NCBI GenBank assembly: GCA_030524345.1
Contig: JAUNGP010000008.1
Location: 1,610-65,609, forward strand
Direction: 5' to 3'
Source: Clostridia bacterium
Lineage (GTDB): Bacteria > Bacillota > Clostridia > TANB77 > CAG-465
Length of the DNA stretch: 64,000 nt
Shown here: positions 16,737 to 22,977 of the stretch, piece by piece
Position numbering within the stretch: the first letter of the stretch is position 1
Layout: each line of letters opens with the position of its first letter
Program-made: the position numbers and the translations under genes
Notes under the pieces: model-generated
What the model was told of the DNA's origin: nothing
The model's database searches: none
What the model saw: only the letters and a program-made list of their open reading frames with translations

Positions 16737-17595
16737 AAATGGAATATTAAACATTGATAAACCGCAAGGAATCACTTCTCATGATGTTGTAGATGCTATT
16801 CGAAAATTATTTCCGAACACGAAAGTAGGTCATACAGGGACGTTAGATCCTCTAGCTACAGGGGTGTTACCAATATGTATAGGAGAGGCTACAAAACTTA
16901 CCAATCATATAACTTCAGAAGATAAAATGTATCAAGTTAAGATGTTACTTGGTGTTGAAACTGATACTTATGATATTACTGGAAAGATCATGTTTGCAAG
17001 TGTAGTGAATAAGGATGAAATTTATATAAAAGAAAGAATAAAGAGATTTATAGGAAGACAATCCCAAATACCACCTATGTATAGTGCAATTCGTGTTGAG
17101 GGAAAACATGCTTATACACTTGCAAGAGAGGGAAAAGAAGTTGAACTTGCACCACGTGAGATAGAAATATTTTCCATAGATAATATATATGTGAATTTAG
17201 AAACAAAGATAGTTAGTTTTGATGTTTCTTGTACAAAGGGAACTTATATCAGAAGTTTGGTAAATGATATAGGCAAAAATATTGGTTGCGGTGCTACTAT
17301 GATTGAATTAAGAAGAATTAAGACAGGCAACTTTTTAATAGAAGATAGCATTCCATTGTATGACTATTTAAAATTGGAATATTTTGAAATGCTTGATAAG
17401 ATAATATCAATTGAGGAATATTATAAAGAGTCTAAAAAAATTATTTTGGAGGCAAATGAATATAATCAATTCCTAAATGGTGTTAAACTTCCATGTGAAA
17501 CGCAGGAAAAAATCGTTAGAGTTTATACCAATAATGTATTTCATGGGTTAGGGATAGTGGAAGATAATAAGCTAAAAAGATATATTATAGAGTAA
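16717..17595 (+). CDS. truB: tRNA pseudouridine(55) synthase TruB
   Basis: GILNIDKPQGITSHDVV and GHTGTLDPLATGVLPI (catalytic Asp motif). Overlaps the end of nrnA. Start is GTG 16717 or ATG 16720. Confidence 0.93.
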   Translation: MMVPKIKNGILNIDKPQGITSHDVVDAIRKLFPNTKVGHTGTLDPLATGVLPICIGEATKLTNHITSEDKMYQVKMLLGVETDTYDITGKIMFASVVNKDEIYIKERIKRFIGRQSQIPPMYSAIRVEGKHAYTLAREGKEVELAPREIEIFSIDNIYVNLETKIVSFDVSCTKGTYIRSLVNDIGKNIGCGATMIELRRIKTGNFLIEDSIPLYDYLKLEYFEMLDKIISIEEYYKESKKIILEANEYNQFLNGVKLPCETQEKIVRVYTNNVFHGLGIVEDNKLKRYIIE

Positions 17596-17599
17596 AGAG

Positions 17600-17627
17600 A
17601 GTATTAGTTGATGCTAATACTTTTTTT
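17600..17627 (+). terminator. intrinsic terminator ending the rimP-truB operon
   Basis: AGTATTAG (17600-17607) pairs with CTAATACT (17614-17621), followed by TTTTTT. Confidence 0.75.
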
Positions 17628-17630
17628 CTG

Positions 17631-17659
17631 TTGAAAAAAGTTGTAAAAGTATATATAAT
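17631..17659 (+). promoter_or_regulatory. sigma-A promoter of the pseudopilin-like gene trio
   Basis: TTGAAA (17631-17636), 17 nt, TATAAT (17654-17659). Confidence 0.65.
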
Positions 17660-17683
17660 AATTATATTAAGGGTGAAGATAGG

Positions 17684-18163
17684 ATGAAAAACTTAAATAA
17701 AAAAAGTGGAATATCTCTTATGGTGCTTGCAATCACAGTAGTCATAATGATCGTTATTGCCTCAACGATTTTAGTTTCATATAACAATATCATTGAAGAT
17801 ACATTAAAAAAAGACTTTGCAAGTGAAATATATTCTATACAAAAATTAGTAGACCAATATTATTTTATCAATGGTAGATATCCGATTACAAGCCAATATA
17901 TTTTAGATATCGATACTATCGATGAAAAATTTAGATTTGAATTTGAAGAGGAAAGGGTAGAAAATAATAGTATAAAATTATCGATTATCGACTTAAAAGA
18001 ATGTGATGTAGAAAATTCCAAACGAGGAAAAAAAGATACAGATAATGATATCTACGTCGTATCTGAAAAAACTGGTATCATTTATTATATAAAAGGTGCA
18101 AAATTTGATGATTTTGTATATTATACTTTAACAGACGACTTAAAAAGAGAGATTGGTCTTTAA
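17684..18163 (+). CDS. pseudopilin-like protein, short paralog (N-terminal module only)
   Basis: N-terminus MKNLNKKSG-ISLMVLAITVVIMIVIAS (basic, Gly, about 20 hydrophobic residues), then an amphipathic helix ending QYYFINGRYP. Shares the YYTLTDDLK end motif with the next two genes. Confidence 0.6.
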   Translation: MKNLNKKSGISLMVLAITVVIMIVIASTILVSYNNIIEDTLKKDFASEIYSIQKLVDQYYFINGRYPITSQYILDIDTIDEKFRFEFEEERVENNSIKLSIIDLKECDVENSKRGKKDTDNDIYVVSEKTGIIYYIKGAKFDDFVYYTLTDDLKREIGL

Positions 18164-18176
18164 AAGAGGTGAAAAT

Positions 18177-19202
18177 ATGAGAAAAGGTGTATCTCTTGCA
18201 TCTTTAATGATTACCATTGTAATTATTATGTTACTTGCTACGACAGTAGCAATTTCTGCTAGTTCTAGTATCAATGATTCAAGAAAAATTAGTTTTGCTA
18301 CTGAGATTTCGTTTATTCAGGAGGCAGTGAATCATTATTATATGAAACATGGAAATATTCCTGTATTGGAAAAAATAGAAATGAATTTATCCACTTTAGA
18401 TGAAGAAAATAGATTAGAATTTAAGGGCGAGAATGTGAATAATGATATAGTTCAATTATATAGATTAGATCTACCAAGTCTTGGAAAGATAGATACTGTA
18501 TTTGGAAATGATGAAAAAGAAAGAGATTATTACGCGGTTTCTTTAGATACAAATAGAGTGTACTATGTTTTAGGACTTCATGTGGGTGAGAAGAACTATT
18601 ATAGCCTAACAGACGAGCTAAGAAGTATTATTCGATACTTTGATAATTCTTTAACAGATAACATTATATTTAGTAAATCTATCAGTAAATGGACAAATCA
18701 AAATATTGATGTACAGATACTGATTCCAAGTGAATATTCTAACATTAATATCGTTGTAAAACAAAGTGGTAATGTGATTTCTAATGTGTCAAATAGTATA
18801 TTGAATGGCAAATATCATCAATATATGATTGAAGGAATATCCGGAAATTATAATATTAGTGTATCATATTTAAAAAATAATGAGAATAAGAATATATCAT
18901 TTGTAGTAGATAATTATGATAATGAAAAACCAACATACCAAGTATCAGATCGAAAAAATTTAGACAATGGTGATGAAAGATATAGTTATATAGAACTGTA
19001 TGATGTTAATGATAATCTTAGTGGTATATCTAAAATGAAATATATGAAATCTGAAGTATCAGAGGGGGATATCAGAGAAAATGGTATTGATATTCAAGAC
19101 GGTATATTAGAACTTGATGATGACACAGAATATATTACAATATATATAGAAGATAATGCTGAAAATTATGACTATCGAGTGCTTGATGTTAGGGGGAAAT
19201 AA
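18177..19202 (+). CDS. pseudopilin-like protein with Ig-like C-terminal extension (paralog 2)
   Basis: MRKG-VSLASLMITIVIIMLLATT, HYYMKHGNIP, YYSLTDELR. C-terminal half has KWTNQNIDVQI, GNYNISVSY, DNEKP, YITIYIEDNAENY. AAGAGGTGA SD before ATG 18177. Confidence 0.6.
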   Translation: MRKGVSLASLMITIVIIMLLATTVAISASSSINDSRKISFATEISFIQEAVNHYYMKHGNIPVLEKIEMNLSTLDEENRLEFKGENVNNDIVQLYRLDLPSLGKIDTVFGNDEKERDYYAVSLDTNRVYYVLGLHVGEKNYYSLTDELRSIIRYFDNSLTDNIIFSKSISKWTNQNIDVQILIPSEYSNINIVVKQSGNVISNVSNSILNGKYHQYMIEGISGNYNISVSYLKNNENKNISFVVDNYDNEKPTYQVSDRKNLDNGDERYSYIELYDVNDNLSGISKMKYMKSEVSEGDIRENGIDIQDGILELDDDTEYITIYIEDNAENYDYRVLDVRGK

Positions 19203-20231
19203 ATGAGAAAGAAAAGTGGAATTAGTCTTGCTTCAGTGATGATTGTTACATTTCTTATTATCTTACTTACAACAACCATTACGATATCTGTAAGTAGAGT
19301 GTCTGAAAATGCGAAAAAATTATCATTTGCAAGCGAGTTAAATAGTTTACAGACTACAATAGATTCTTACTATTTAGCAAATAAGGAGTATCCAGTACTT
19401 GATGAAAGTATACTTTTAGATATTAGTAATGTAGAAGATCAAGAAATATTTAAAGAGGAAAATATTGTGAATAATAAAATTACTTTAAGTAAAATTGATT
19501 ATGATAAGATTCATTATATCAGTCTTCATTATGGAACAAATTTAAATGAGGGGGATATATATGGAGTATCATTGCTCACTGGGAAAGTATATTATGCTTC
19601 TGGTATGAGATTTGGAAATATGATATATTATACATTAAATGAGGAGTTAAAGACTTTACTTGCTAGTGGAAGAAATAGTAGTATTTATGAAAATCATATG
19701 GTGATTTTTACTCCATCTGAAATTAAATGGACAAATCATGAAATACAAGTAGATGTAAAGGTACCTAAAAAGTTTACAAATATCTCTGTTATTTCAGGAG
19801 TTGATAGTTATTCCTTGAGCCAAGAGGATGAAAATTATGATATATATCGTGTAAGCAAAAAAGGAAATTATACAGTTGAAGTAACATATTTTGATGAGAA
19901 TGGAAAGCAGAAACATGCTATTTATGATGTAAAGAATTTTGATGATCAAAAACCAGTATTAGAAATCGACTCTCATGTAACTTTAAATGAGGAATACAAT
20001 CATGAAACATATGGTTATTATACAATCATAAAGGCAGAAGATAATGATAGTGGAGTAAAAGAGATAAAATATGAATATGGAAAGATTGAGAATCATGTTA
20101 ACTATTATTTTAAAACAAATGGTAACTTAGTAAAAGATAACAGAATTATTATAAAGAGAGGATATGAGTATATAACAGTTTATATAGAAGACAATGCAGG
20201 AAATTATAATATAGAATATCTCAAAATATAA
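19203..20231 (+). CDS. pseudopilin-like protein with Ig-like C-terminal extension (paralog 3)
   Basis: MRKKSG-ISLASVMIVTFLIILLTTT, SYYLANKEYP, YYTLNEELK. C-terminal KWTNHEIQVDV, GNYTVEVTY, DDQKP, DNDSGVKEIKY, YITVYIEDNAGNY. The ATG abuts the previous stop. Confidence 0.6.
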   Translation: MRKKSGISLASVMIVTFLIILLTTTITISVSRVSENAKKLSFASELNSLQTTIDSYYLANKEYPVLDESILLDISNVEDQEIFKEENIVNNKITLSKIDYDKIHYISLHYGTNLNEGDIYGVSLLTGKVYYASGMRFGNMIYYTLNEELKTLLASGRNSSIYENHMVIFTPSEIKWTNHEIQVDVKVPKKFTNISVISGVDSYSLSQEDENYDIYRVSKKGNYTVEVTYFDENGKQKHAIYDVKNFDDQKPVLEIDSHVTLNEEYNHETYGYYTIIKAEDNDSGVKEIKYEYGKIENHVNYYFKTNGNLVKDNRIIIKRGYEYITVYIEDNAGNYNIEYLKI

Positions 20232-20232
20232 A

Positions 20233-20254
20233 GACCAAGCTTTTAAGCTTGGTC
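20233..20254. terminator. bidirectional hairpin terminator
   Basis: GACCAAGCTT (20233-20242) pairs with AAGCTTGGTC (20245-20254). Lies between convergent genes and overlaps the 3' end of 20243..20698. Confidence 0.55.
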
Positions 20255-20698
20255 CTTGTCTTTCTCATTTGCTTTCTTAATTAAATTATCAAGACACATA
20301 TGAGCACTACTTTGGGGAATAGAAATCAGATGCCGTTCGGCAGGTGAAAATAACCTGTTATAAAATTTTGTGTCATGATCAATATTGTTTAGCTCTATTT
20401 GAAGTCTTGCAATGCTTATATCGCAATTTTCATCAAAATGCCGTTCTACAATTTTATTTGCTATGCTGTCATATTGATCAAGTATCCGATTTAATATTTT
20501 AAAGGATTTTAGGTTATATAACGAGATAGTTGATATCATGAGACAGAAAATAGAAATAATAAGATAAAGAGGACCTAATCTGTTTTGTGTGATAATGCAT
20601 AAAGTAAATAAAATTAAGAGCTCTATTAAAAAGACGACCATACAACTTAGGGTTAGTTTTGTTTTTCCATCGTATCTGATTTTGATTTTAAGATTCAT
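20243..20698 (-). CDS. hypothetical two-TM membrane protein
   Basis: GAAGGAGGAG SD. Two hydrophobic helices followed by a soluble tail. No motif recognised. Confidence 0.55.
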   Translation of the reverse strand: MNLKIKIRYDGKTKLTLSCMVVFLIELLILFTLCIITQNRLGPLYLIISIFCLMISTISLYNLKSFKILNRILDQYDSIANKIVERHFDENCDISIARLQIELNNIDHDTKFYNRLFSPAERHLISIPQSSAHMCLDNLIKKANEKDKDQA

Positions 20699-20925: not shown

Positions 20926-21450
20926 ATGAGCATTGATTATTTAGTAGAAAAATATAGTAAGCTAGTATATAAAATATGTTATGATATGCTTAAAAACGCT
21001 CTTGATGCAGAAGATATCACTCAGGAAGTATATGTCAGCTTATATCTTAATTTCGATAGATATGGTATTTTAGAAGAAAATGAGATCAAAAATATCATTT
21101 GTAAGATAGCATTGAACAAATGTAAAGATGTACTGAAAAGTAAAGCAAAAAAATTAGAGAATATGACAATGGATGGTGTACTTGTATTGGAAAATTTTAT
21201 TGATCATGATAGTGTAGAGCAAGAGGTAATAAAAATAGAAAATAAAAAAATGATACAAGAATTAATAAACAGTTTAAAACATCCATATAAAGAGATTTTG
21301 AATGATTATTATATAGAGGAATATTCATTAGATAATATTGCTAGTAAAATGAATGTTACGAAAGGAACATTAAAAATGCAACTTTATCGAGGTAAAAAGA
21401 TTTTAAAAGAAAAACTAGAAGAGTTTAAAGGAGGAGATTACTATGATTGA
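20926..21450 (+). CDS. ECF-type RNA polymerase sigma-70 family factor
   Basis: Region 2 pattern (LVYKICYDML...AEDITQEVYVSLY) and region 4 HTH (YSLDNIASKMNVTKGTLKMQLYRGKKIL). 174 aa. Confidence 0.8.
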   Translation: MSIDYLVEKYSKLVYKICYDMLKNALDAEDITQEVYVSLYLNFDRYGILEENEIKNIICKIALNKCKDVLKSKAKKLENMTMDGVLVLENFIDHDSVEQEVIKIENKKMIQELINSLKHPYKEILNDYYIEEYSLDNIASKMNVTKGTLKMQLYRGKKILKEKLEEFKGGDYYD

Positions 21451-21814
21451 TGATAAAATAAATGAAATTGATAAATTACTAGATGATGATAGTTTATTAA
21501 ACGATTATGTAAGTATGATTGATAATAGTAATGTTGAAATTCCAAGTGGACTTGAAAGTAGAATCTTAAATGGAATCAAAGTAAGGCGTATAAACAAACA
21601 ATACCAGTCTAACAAGTTTGTTGATATATTAAAAATTGTTGCATGTACAGTTGTAGCTATATGTATATGGAATTCTAGTATCCCTAGCAATATCTGTTAT
21701 GCAACAAGTAAGAATATCAAAAGAAGTGATGTTTATACGAAATTTGACAGTGTTATAAGTGATATAAATGCTTTCTTTATGACACCTATTAAATTAGAAA
21801 GGAGAGAAAAATAA
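21443..21814 (+). CDS. putative single-pass anti-sigma factor
   Basis: 8-nt overlap with the sigma gene (ATG at 21443, stop at 21448-21450). One TM (ILKIVACTVVAICIW). Function inferred from position only. Confidence 0.45.
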   Translation: MIDDKINEIDKLLDDDSLLNDYVSMIDNSNVEIPSGLESRILNGIKVRRINKQYQSNKFVDILKIVACTVVAICIWNSSIPSNICYATSKNIKRSDVYTKFDSVISDINAFFMTPIKLERREK

Positions 21815-22314
21815 TGAAAAAGAACTTGTTTTTTACATTCTGTTTTAGCTTTATACCTGGTGCTGGTCAAATGTATCAAGGATATATGAAAAGAGGAGGG
21901 TCTATATTAATAGTTCTTACACTTTTTTGCATGTTAACTGTTATTATTTCAACACCAATTATGATGTTTCCAATCATGGCACTCTTTGCATATAGTTTTT
22001 TTGATACTTTTAACGTAAGAAATAGAATAGGGACAGATAAAGAAGTAATAGATGACTATATTTGGAACAATAAAGATATGATTGATCTAAAATCAAAATT
22101 TAATATGTCTAAAAGGCACACATTTTTTGGTATTATTTTAATTATATTTGGTGCATATATTTTACTGAATTCAGTGATTGTAGATTTAGCATATAGTATA
22201 CCAGCACTAAGAATATTTGCTAGTTTACTTTCTAATTATTTACCACCAATCGTAATTGCAGTAATCTGCATCTATATTGGTATAAAATTTATTTCAAAAA
22301 AGGAAGAAAAATAG
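21814..22314 (+). CDS. membrane protein (N-terminal IPGAGQMYQGYMKRG motif)
   Basis: TAATG overlap with the previous gene. Four hydrophobic segments. Family not identified. Confidence 0.5.
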   Translation: MKKNLFFTFCFSFIPGAGQMYQGYMKRGGSILIVLTLFCMLTVIISTPIMMFPIMALFAYSFFDTFNVRNRIGTDKEVIDDYIWNNKDMIDLKSKFNMSKRHTFFGIILIIFGAYILLNSVIVDLAYSIPALRIFASLLSNYLPPIVIAVICIYIGIKFISKKEEK

Positions 22315-22323
22315 GTGATGTTT

Positions 22324-22977
22324 ATGGAAAATAATGATATAAAAAAGATAGGTAGAAACACCTTTGGAATTACTTTTATTATTGTAGGAATTGCGATTAT
22401 CTTACAATTATTTATCAAGTACGATATATTCAAATATGCAATGCTTATGTGGCCAGTAGTCTTAATTCTGCTTGGAATTGAAATATTATACTATTCACAT
22501 AAAAAAGATATTACAATAAAATATGATGGAATTGGAATATTTTTAACATTTTTGGTAATTATTTTTGGAAGTATTTTTAGTATTGTTAATCTTGGAATAA
22601 TGAGACTTACAGAAAGTAAATTCTTATTTAATAGGCCACTTGAATATAGTTATGCAAAGTATTTTAATGTGGAAGAAATAGAATTAAAGATTATGAATCT
22701 ATCAGAGGATAATATTAATGTAGTAGTAAAAGAAGAAAAAGGATTAGACATGACAAGAGTAGATATTAAAATTGAGTCCAAAGATGAAAAAATTAGTAAT
22801 TTAAGAGAGCTTTTTGATGATAATAGCATATATGAATTTATCACTGTCAATTCGTATAATGACAATAGTATAGAAATATATAATTATCCAGATTGGGTAA
22901 AAAAGGTTAGTATAACAGTGTATACTCCAAATAAGGAGAAAGTAAAATGTACTGGTAGTATTAACTTAAAAGACTAA
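22324..22977 (+). CDS. membrane protein with C-terminal beta-rich domain (LiaF/LiaG-like, tentative)
   Basis: Three N-terminal TM helices, then a soluble domain. ATG 22324 lies 7 nt after AGGTGA; 22315 and 22318 are alternative starts. Confidence 0.45.
   Translation: MENNDIKKIGRNTFGITFIIVGIAIILQLFIKYDIFKYAMLMWPVVLILLGIEILYYSHKKDITIKYDGIGIFLTFLVIIFGSIFSIVNLGIMRLTESKFLFNRPLEYSYAKYFNVEEIELKIMNLSEDNINVVVKEEKGLDMTRVDIKIESKDEKISNLRELFDDNSIYEFITVNSYNDNSIEIYNYPDWVKKVSITVYTPNKEKVKCTGSINLKD

Follow-up and report, generated by a model that had tools for sequence, protein, structure and literature searches.

Three same-strand genes, here called T1, T2 and T3, lie directly after rimP-nusA-infB-rbfA-nrnA-truB in a 64-kb window (the whole stretch of DNA that we analyzed, 64,000 nucleotides) from the genome of an uncultured Clostridia bacterium (1.7 Mb, GC content ~28%). 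The best explanation of our observations, to which we give a probability of roughly 0.7, is that they encode non-canonical type IV pilins, which would be substrates of an A24 peptidase and would be assembled by a PilM/N-PilB-PilC machine encoded on another contig. A first-pass annotation of this DNA had described pseudopilin-like proteins, possibly processed in trans, and had named plain signal-anchored surface proteins as the alternative. We favor the former reading, because the N-termini resemble those of GspG and type IVa pilins, the Gly at the predicted cleavage site is invariant, and a pilin within the genome's pilus locus has the same signal peptide. Further reasons are the A24 peptidase and PilB/PilC encoded elsewhere in the genome, the joint loss with PilB in relatives, and the immunoglobulin-like (Ig-like) C-terminal halves of T2 and T3. 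Cleavage itself is predicted from the sequence.

T1 (17684..18163, + strand) encodes a 159-aa pilin-like protein that consists of the module only, as judged from its open reading frame (ORF), an AlphaFold2 model and profile matches to GspG and PilA-N. Its leader MKNLNKKSG (residues 1-9) is followed by the hydrophobic segment alpha1N, ISLMVLAITVVIMIVIASTIL, and cleavage is predicted after Gly9. T2 (18177..19202, +) encodes a modular pilin-like protein of 341 aa, recognized by its ORF and ribosome-binding site, an N-terminal match to TIGR01710 and its likeness to T3. It comprises the leader MRKG, a pilin-like module of ~155 aa and a C-terminal Ig-like region. Its start is most likely the ATG at 18177, because the ribosome-binding site AAGAGGTGA lies 5 nt upstream; the longest ORF begins at a TTG at 18153. 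T3 (19203..20231, +) encodes a modular pilin-like protein of 342 aa, supported by its ORF, an AlphaFold2 model and Foldseek matches, with the leader MRKKSG, the module at residues ~1-155 (19203-19667) and a linker at residues 156-163. The genes are tightly packed, with 13 nt between T1 and T2 and 0 nt between T2 and T3 (the T3 ATG abuts the T2 stop), and each has a strong ribosome-binding site. T1 is 35% identical to T2 and 38% to T3, while T2 and T3 share 34% identity over their full length (E = 4e-47). The ORFs and pairwise identities thus bear out the earlier description of three tandem paralogs after truB on the + strand. The motifs quoted with it (K/R..G plus a hydrophobic tract, YY...YP, YYTLTDELK, KWTN, GNY, D..KP and YIT(I/V)YIEDNA.NY) were all found.

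The N-termini were examined in a census of 192 family proteins drawn from two database searches. Leaders had a median length of 4 aa with the consensus M-K-K-G, and the -1 residue was Gly in all 186 proteins with an intact N-terminus; one more carried Ala. The mature protein would begin with I/V/F at +1, S/T at +2 and L/M at +3, followed by A/S/T/V at +5. In the 186 proteins, hydrophobic residues fill at least 18 of the 21 positions of alpha1N, and Asp and Glu fill none. Judged from these letters, family members start with a signal peptide of class III (the prepilin type), in which the Glu of the canonical G|F-T-L-I-E pattern is replaced. A canonical G|FTLIE prepilin N-terminus was found at none of the ORF starts scanned genome-wide. 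On the other hand, a 148-aa pilin (C29_148) within the pilus locus on contig C29 starts with MNSKRG|VSLIVLAIT, and its signal peptide and alpha1N align with the T1 profile at an hhalign probability of 95% (E = 3e-8). Since the scan found no canonical prepilin and the in-locus pilin carries the same motif, the atypical motif is the normal form in this organism.

These observations also bear on the possibility that T1-T3 are uncleaved, signal-anchored (type II membrane) surface adhesins, in which the helix would tether Ig-like, lectin or leucine-rich repeat (LRR) ectodomains independently of any pilus. A single N-terminal transmembrane helix with a basic cytoplasmic stub is what such an anchor would look like. 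The absence of Glu5, the sub-threshold scores of all pilin hidden Markov models (HMMs) and the lack of a Foldseek pilin match for the T1 head fit it as well, and so does the scattering of family genes amid housekeeping genes: two more paralogs in the genome, of 142 aa and 507 aa, each stand alone in such surroundings. However, a plain membrane anchor would not require Gly at the boundary between the basic and hydrophobic regions, so that the invariant residue (186/186) argues against it. The likeness to GspG and PilA described below runs ~35 residues past the transmembrane segment, and the whole family, scattered copies included, vanishes together with PilB in congeners. Moreover, C29_148 has the same N-terminus inside a pilus locus, and T1 has no cargo to anchor. 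We therefore regard a simple anchor as unlikely.

Two module-only profiles were searched against the PDB, of which the first was narrower and the second was built from a 35-sequence alignment of module-only members. The first matched Geobacter PilA-N (E = 7e-4) and GspG (E = 8e-3). The second matched GspG (5wda, E = 1.8e-5), Geobacter PilA-N (E = 3.2e-5) and Streptococcus sanguinis PilE1 (E = 0.005). Lower in its list came the PilE proteins of gonococci and meningococci, MshA and a number of PilA proteins, and pilins made up 17 of the 28 matches listed for it. The pilin alignments span the cleavage site and alpha1 up to a Y-x-x-x-N-x-YP motif; the one with GspG 5wda takes in mature residues 2-64 and, with them, the Y-x-x-D/N-x-x-x-YP motif that closes alpha1. 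The GspG-like N-terminal architecture noticed in the first-pass annotation is thus seen at the profile level, from the cleavage Gly through alpha1. Among the curated families, TIGR01710 (GspG) gave sub-threshold matches to T1, T2, T3 and 13 of 26 long-paralog relatives, with E = 1.6e-4 for the N-terminus of T2. The best trio score was 21.7 bits, in the N-terminal half only, for a cutoff of 88.85 bits, which places the trio outside the GspG equivalog. Paralog C25_507 scored 20.9 bits against Pfam T2SSG (cutoff 21) over profile positions 4-105 of 108. The N-methylation family PF07963 reached only sub-threshold values, E = 0.07 in T2 and E = 0.0077 in one of 17 T1 orthologs, and was missing from the matches at E <= 1e-3 in 47 long family members. 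We took the DUF3939 matches (5 of 17 members, E >= 3.8e-4) and single matches to unrelated families as weak chance hits.

The predicted structures agree with this division into a pilin-like module and additional domains. The AlphaFold2 model of T1 (predicted local distance difference test (pLDDT) score 86.6, predicted template modeling score 0.72) has a continuous 56-residue helix at residues 8-63, followed by a small beta-sheet of six short strands. In this model, the layout is that of the pilin "lollipop". The model of T3 (pLDDT 82.5) contains a T1-like module, the low-confidence linker 156-163 and two beta-sandwich domains, at residues 168-243 (19704-19931) and 252-341 (19956-20225). Its best Foldseek matches in the PDB were domains of SiiE (BIg), GhpA, CbhA (Fn3), intimin and SraP, and the matches of the full-length model were confined to the Ig-like domains. 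The modeled C-terminal domains therefore resemble the Ig, Fn3 and BIg domains of adhesins. The beta-rich C-terminal region of ~190 aa, which had been read as one Ig-like module, proved to be Ig-like in both the model and Foldseek, but it consists of two beta-sandwich domains rather than a single one.

The same arrangement extends across a large family. An exhaustive profile search retrieved 3,650 cluster representatives at E <= 1e-3; of these, 803 reached E <= 1e-10 and 151 reached E <= 1e-30, where the ~800 clusters are defined at 50% identity. In all the matches listed, the module came first in the protein, at residues ~2-155, and total protein lengths ranged from 111 to 1,822 aa. The cargo of the long members included Laminin_G_3 (a ConA-like lectin), DUF285 and other LRRs, Flg_new (Listeria-Bacteroides repeats), GLUG, Y_Y_Y and BNR, which are predicted extracellular binding domains. 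Modular pilins have been defined, from S. sanguinis PilB and PilC, as proteins in which a short linker connects a pilin module at the N-terminus with at least one additional structural or functional module (Raynaud et al. 2021, PMC8179133). T3, with its module, linker and two beta-sandwich domains, matches this architecture, as do relatives with lectin or LRR cargo. The published census of modular pilins required the IPR012902/PF07963 N-methylation motif (PMC8179133), which the family does not trigger.

A whole-genome search for pilD, pilB and pilC, which the first-pass annotation had proposed, located the putative assembly machinery. The sole Peptidase_A24 protein of the genome is encoded at C17:90062-90811 (249 aa, catalytic domain only, 71.3 bits). 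The pilus locus on C29 contains a PilM/N-like gene, small pilin-like genes, PilB (548 aa, 320 bits) and PilC (two T2SSF domains). None of A24 peptidase, PilB and PilC is encoded in the 64-kb window, so the earlier statement that no assembly machinery lies nearby holds for the window, but all the components are present on other contigs.

Another observation concerns a 256-aa protein encoded in the same locus (C29:18603-19373, +). It combines the PilD N-terminal domain (A24_N_bact, E = 3.6e-28) with an extra transmembrane helix and a minor-pilin-like C-terminus. In such fusions, the C-terminal part starts with an internal class III site of canonical form, including Glu5 (RNHG|VFLTE, QKKG|VFITE and KSG|VFLVE). 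An uninterrupted reading frame encodes the fusion in at least 24 genomes belonging to six genera (also at loci L041, L043, L044 and L046), and in one genome (G027) it is split. The catalytic A24 domain is encoded apart from it, by a gene on C17 that has no A24_N. This suggests a split prepilin peptidase together with a pilin that would have a membrane domain of ~140 aa as its "leader". The fused protein is the only Glu5-bearing pilin seen in the repertoire of the genome.

With the machinery in hand, we could weigh whether T1-T3 are instead subunits of a short pseudopilus, i.e., a piston like that of the type II secretion system (T2SS) or of Com systems, built by PilB/PilC for protein secretion or DNA uptake. 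The T2SS pseudopilin GspG/PulG (TIGR01710, PF08334, 5wda) is indeed the best sequence match of the module and its best curated match. In addition, PilB is the single T2SSE-family ATPase above cutoff in this genome, where a PilT-like retraction ATPase was not found, and secretion linked to type IV pili is reported for Clostridium perfringens (PMC11580942). By contrast, the fused lectin, LRR and Ig-like cargo consists of binding modules that need surface exposure, and the locus has PilM/N-like genes, which are typical of monoderm type IVa pili. The 548-aa PilB is of the PilB/GspE type, and most relatives encode a second ATPase of ~375 aa adjoining PilB, which is probably a PilT-like retraction ATPase; in this genome it may have been lost or may fall in an assembly gap. 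Unlike GspG, the trio scores far below the equivalog cutoff, lacks Glu5 and has no demonstrable calcium-binding head, and its host is a monoderm with no outer membrane or T2SS. Overall, a pseudopilus seems quite improbable.

The distribution of the family across relatives gave an independent view. The phylogenetic profiles were drawn from the same 121 order-level genomes throughout. The module was present in 99 of them, often in 10 to at least 30 copies per genome of 1.1-2 Mb, and PilB in 106. Both occurred in 98 genomes and neither in 14, leaving one genome with the module only and eight with PilB only (Fisher p = 6e-12). The sole module-only genome had a single weak match, and the eight PilB-only genomes belonged to one family with a distinct, higher-scoring PilB type. 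Within the window's own genus, 16 genomes had both, eight had neither and none was discordant (p = 1.4e-6); these p-values overstate independence, because the joint loss within the genus may be a single event. The eight PilB-less congeners have kept truB, with arsR-cadA or other genes immediately behind it in place of the trio. Their TruB proteins are 72-74% identical to that of the window, closer than those of several trio-bearing metagenome-assembled genomes (MAGs; 68-71%), which points to a secondary joint loss. All module copies, including the scattered ones, have gone together with PilB in these congeners.

We also examined whether T1-T3 belong to the Tad-like pilus, whose gene cluster is conserved in TANB77 and whose downstream single-transmembrane proteins were termed "pilin-like" (Kim et al. 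2024, PMC11680825). The cluster is present in this genome (C36:20404-34199, -), where it encodes CpaB-, TadZ-, CpaE-, TadA- and TadBC-like proteins of 345, 235, 269, 631 and 688 aa. Seven pilin-like genes come after these, and gene order and sizes are as published, which suggests that the organism is a member of the uncultured order TANB77. The genome thus has two type IV filament systems and one A24 peptidase. That peptidase has no N-terminal methylase domain, like peptidases of the TadV/CpaA type, which speaks for a Tad-like context, and both the trio and the cluster encode predicted single-transmembrane surface-fiber proteins in the same lineage. Nevertheless, the Tad-like ATPase is kept (83-86% identity) in all eight congeners that lack PilB and the module, and also in G065, G083, G107, G115 and G117, so that the family follows PilB/PilC and not Tad. 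The N-termini of the cluster's pilin-like proteins (e.g., MDNAQKAIMVGVGLF) are unlike MKKG|ISL, and the CpaB/TadZ/CpaE/TadA/TadBC set differs from PilM/N-PilB-PilC. On the grounds of distribution and N-termini, we rejected the trio as a part of the published Tad-like pilus; an origin of T1-T3 in this cluster is very unlikely.

A synteny survey, another of the checks proposed at first pass, showed that the short-long-long operon after truB is kept in most of 20 related loci, down to ~68% TruB identity. All these loci come from gut or rumen MAGs labeled uncultured Clostridia or Clostridium sp. In three of them (L016, L017 and L020), the gap between truB and T1 is only ~10-20 nt, and the two genes are likely co-transcribed, which would tie surface-fiber genes to a housekeeping operon in an unusual way. 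Elsewhere in related genomes, a gene of ~155 aa encoding the module only recurs directly upstream of a long modular member at several loci per genome (e.g., G008:C13:76485-77402, G018:C12:166692-167623 and G060:C4:169266-170211). By analogy with PilA and PilC of S. sanguinis, this hints at a functional short/long pairing.

Several points weigh against the interpretation of T1-T3 as type IV pilins. Glu5 is found in nearly all bacterial pilins that polymerize into the filament body, and this is typical rather than universal: GspK/PilK, S. sanguinis PilA and the archaeal pilins are exceptions. In our family, Glu occurred at +5 in none of the 186 proteins, in line with its absence noted earlier for the trio. 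Every match to the curated pilin HMMs PF07963, PF08334 and TIGR01710 fell below cutoff. A Foldseek search of the T1 model against the PDB, which had been suggested as a check for a pilin head, came out negative, with a best E of 0.33 and no significant match; the comparison with Clostridioides difficile PilA1 gave E = 5.7 and TM-scores of 0.31/0.36. In the light of this result, the globular head is not assignable to a known pilin head. The trio stood beside pilus genes in none of the related loci surveyed, and the joint loss with PilB in the genus may amount to one evolutionary event. Finally, we set aside the co-occurrence with the A24 peptidase as evidence: present in 119 of the 121 genomes, the peptidase is near-universal in the order and does not discriminate.

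Taking both sides together, we propose how non-canonical type IV pilins of this kind would work; cleavage, filament incorporation, tip location, adhesive role and ligand are all steps that we infer. T1-T3 would be made as prepilins and inserted in the membrane with the very short basic leader in the cytoplasm. On the cytoplasmic side of the membrane, the A24 peptidase would remove the leader by cutting behind the invariant Gly, leaving a mature protein that begins with (I/V)-(S/T)-L and continues as a 21-residue hydrophobic alpha1N without Glu5. The PilB/PilC machine would then extract the cleaved proteins into a filament. T1 would contribute the pilin module alone; in T2 and T3, a short linker would connect the same module with two Ig-like domains. 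Judging from S. sanguinis pilABC, the products of the conserved short-long-long operon most likely assemble into a complex of minor pilins located at the pilus tip or close to it. Such a complex would display the Ig-like modules, which would mediate adhesion to ligands from the host or the diet. T1 could instead be the major subunit, with which its strong promoter is compatible.

The closest characterized analogue is, in organization and features, the pilABC operon of S. sanguinis. It encodes a small Glu5-less PilA, which PilFind misses, and two modular pilins that form a tip-located adhesive complex with it (PMC9934059); PilB carries a vWA module and PilC an Ig-like and a lectin module (PMC9934059, PMC8179133). 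Like the trio, pilABC is a three-gene operon of a monoderm, with a Glu5-less small pilin of ~17 kDa and two bimodular pilins with a short linker, and its signal peptide escapes standard detectors. The ConA-like lectin superfamily of PilC recurs in relatives of T2 and T3. This likeness rests on organization and features, not on sequence beyond alpha1. Unlike in S. sanguinis, Glu5 is missing from the putative major pilin as well as from all three trio proteins, two Ig-like domains form the cargo, the operon lies outside the pil locus and the family reaches tens of copies per genome. With tip complexes of the PilABC and HIJK kind in general, the likeness is the conserved short-long-long gene organization only.

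Two other comparisons concern the missing Glu5. In tip minor pilins of the GspK/PilK/PilX type, which lack Glu5 like the trio, its absence marks the subunit that caps the filament (PMC10191384). Unlike GspK systems, which have one Glu5-less subunit, here the whole repertoire lacks it except for the A24_N-fused pilin, and there is no GspK alpha-domain insertion. As for archaea, their type IV pilins and archaellins do without Glu5; the leader is short, with Gly or Ala as its last residue, and the peptidase has no methylase domain. The family shares all three of these features. Unlike the archaeal pilins, it has a bacterial host and bacterial-type PilB, PilC and PilM/N, and its alpha1 is nearest to bacterial GspG and type IVa pilins.

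The remaining features of the locus concern its expression and its neighbors. The truB stop codon (17593-17595) is followed by a hairpin, AGTATTAG-6 nt-CTAATACT plus T7 (17600..17628, +), read from the letters themselves. It has a perfect 8-bp AT-rich stem at 17600-17621, and the T7 comes next. The terminator claimed at this place is therefore present; it probably acts as a weak intrinsic terminator for the rimP-nusA-infB-rbfA-nrnA-truB operon, and our terminator consensus scan passed over it because its stem has fewer than 3 GC pairs. The consensus promoter reported upstream of T1 stands likewise: a sigma-70-type promoter, TTGAAA-17-TATAAT (17631..17659, +), matches the consensus at 11 of 12 positions. 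The terminator scan found a bidirectional intrinsic terminator (20230..20257, both strands) that would close the trio unit and is common to T3 and a convergent gene (20243-20698, -). This gene encodes a small membrane protein of 151 aa with no family match, and it recurs at the same position in L007, L008 and L026 with weak identities of 24-34%. Downstream, 20926-22977 hold a four-gene operon encoding an extracytoplasmic function (ECF) sigma factor, an anti-sigma factor and two membrane proteins. It is syntenic with the trio in several relatives (L007, L011, L022 and L024-L026). In the PilB-less congeners (L035-L040), the 10 kb that follow truB do not contain it. The ECF sigma operon may have a regulatory connection with the pilins.

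More broadly, we tentatively suggest an evolutionary scenario, which is plausible rather than probable. A bacterial type IV pilus lineage, in an uncultured gut order that also has the TANB77 Tad-like cluster, would have dropped the salt bridge between Glu5 and the N-terminus, so that major and minor pilins are all Glu5-less. Its peptidase would have been split into a stand-alone A24 domain and an A24_N domain fused, as a giant membrane-embedded "leader", to the only Glu5-bearing pilin. The module would have been duplicated into interchangeable carrier-plus-cargo adhesins, as many as 30 or more in a genome of 1.1-2 Mb. The truB-linked trio would be the conserved priming or tip complex, an analogue of PilABC/HIJK, that recruits the variable adhesins.

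Type IV pilins and modular pilins are already known as kinds of system. What appears to be new is a bacterial PilB-type system whose whole pilin repertoire is Glu5-less. The family also appears new in how large and expanded it is, in escaping the standard signatures for pilins and in occurring in an uncultured gut lineage that is clinically of current interest. Our full-text literature searches found no description of the family, and the TANB77 paper covers only the Tad-like cluster (Kim et al. 2024, PMC11680825); that 2024 study ties this gut clade to cancer immunotherapy response through a different pilus. Modular type IV pilins are a recently recognized route for displaying adhesins on pili. 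The present family, with ~800 clusters and tens of copies per small genome, indicates a sizeable blind spot of the motif-based census, because that census used the canonical N-methylation motif. There is also a consequence for annotation, as the genes of the family are at present labeled "hypothetical" or occasionally "PulG". If our reading is true, a PilB-type system with all its pilins Glu5-less would test the idea that the salt bridge between Glu5 and the N-terminus drives subunit docking. For the clade itself, the family may be a major part of its contact with host or dietary surfaces.

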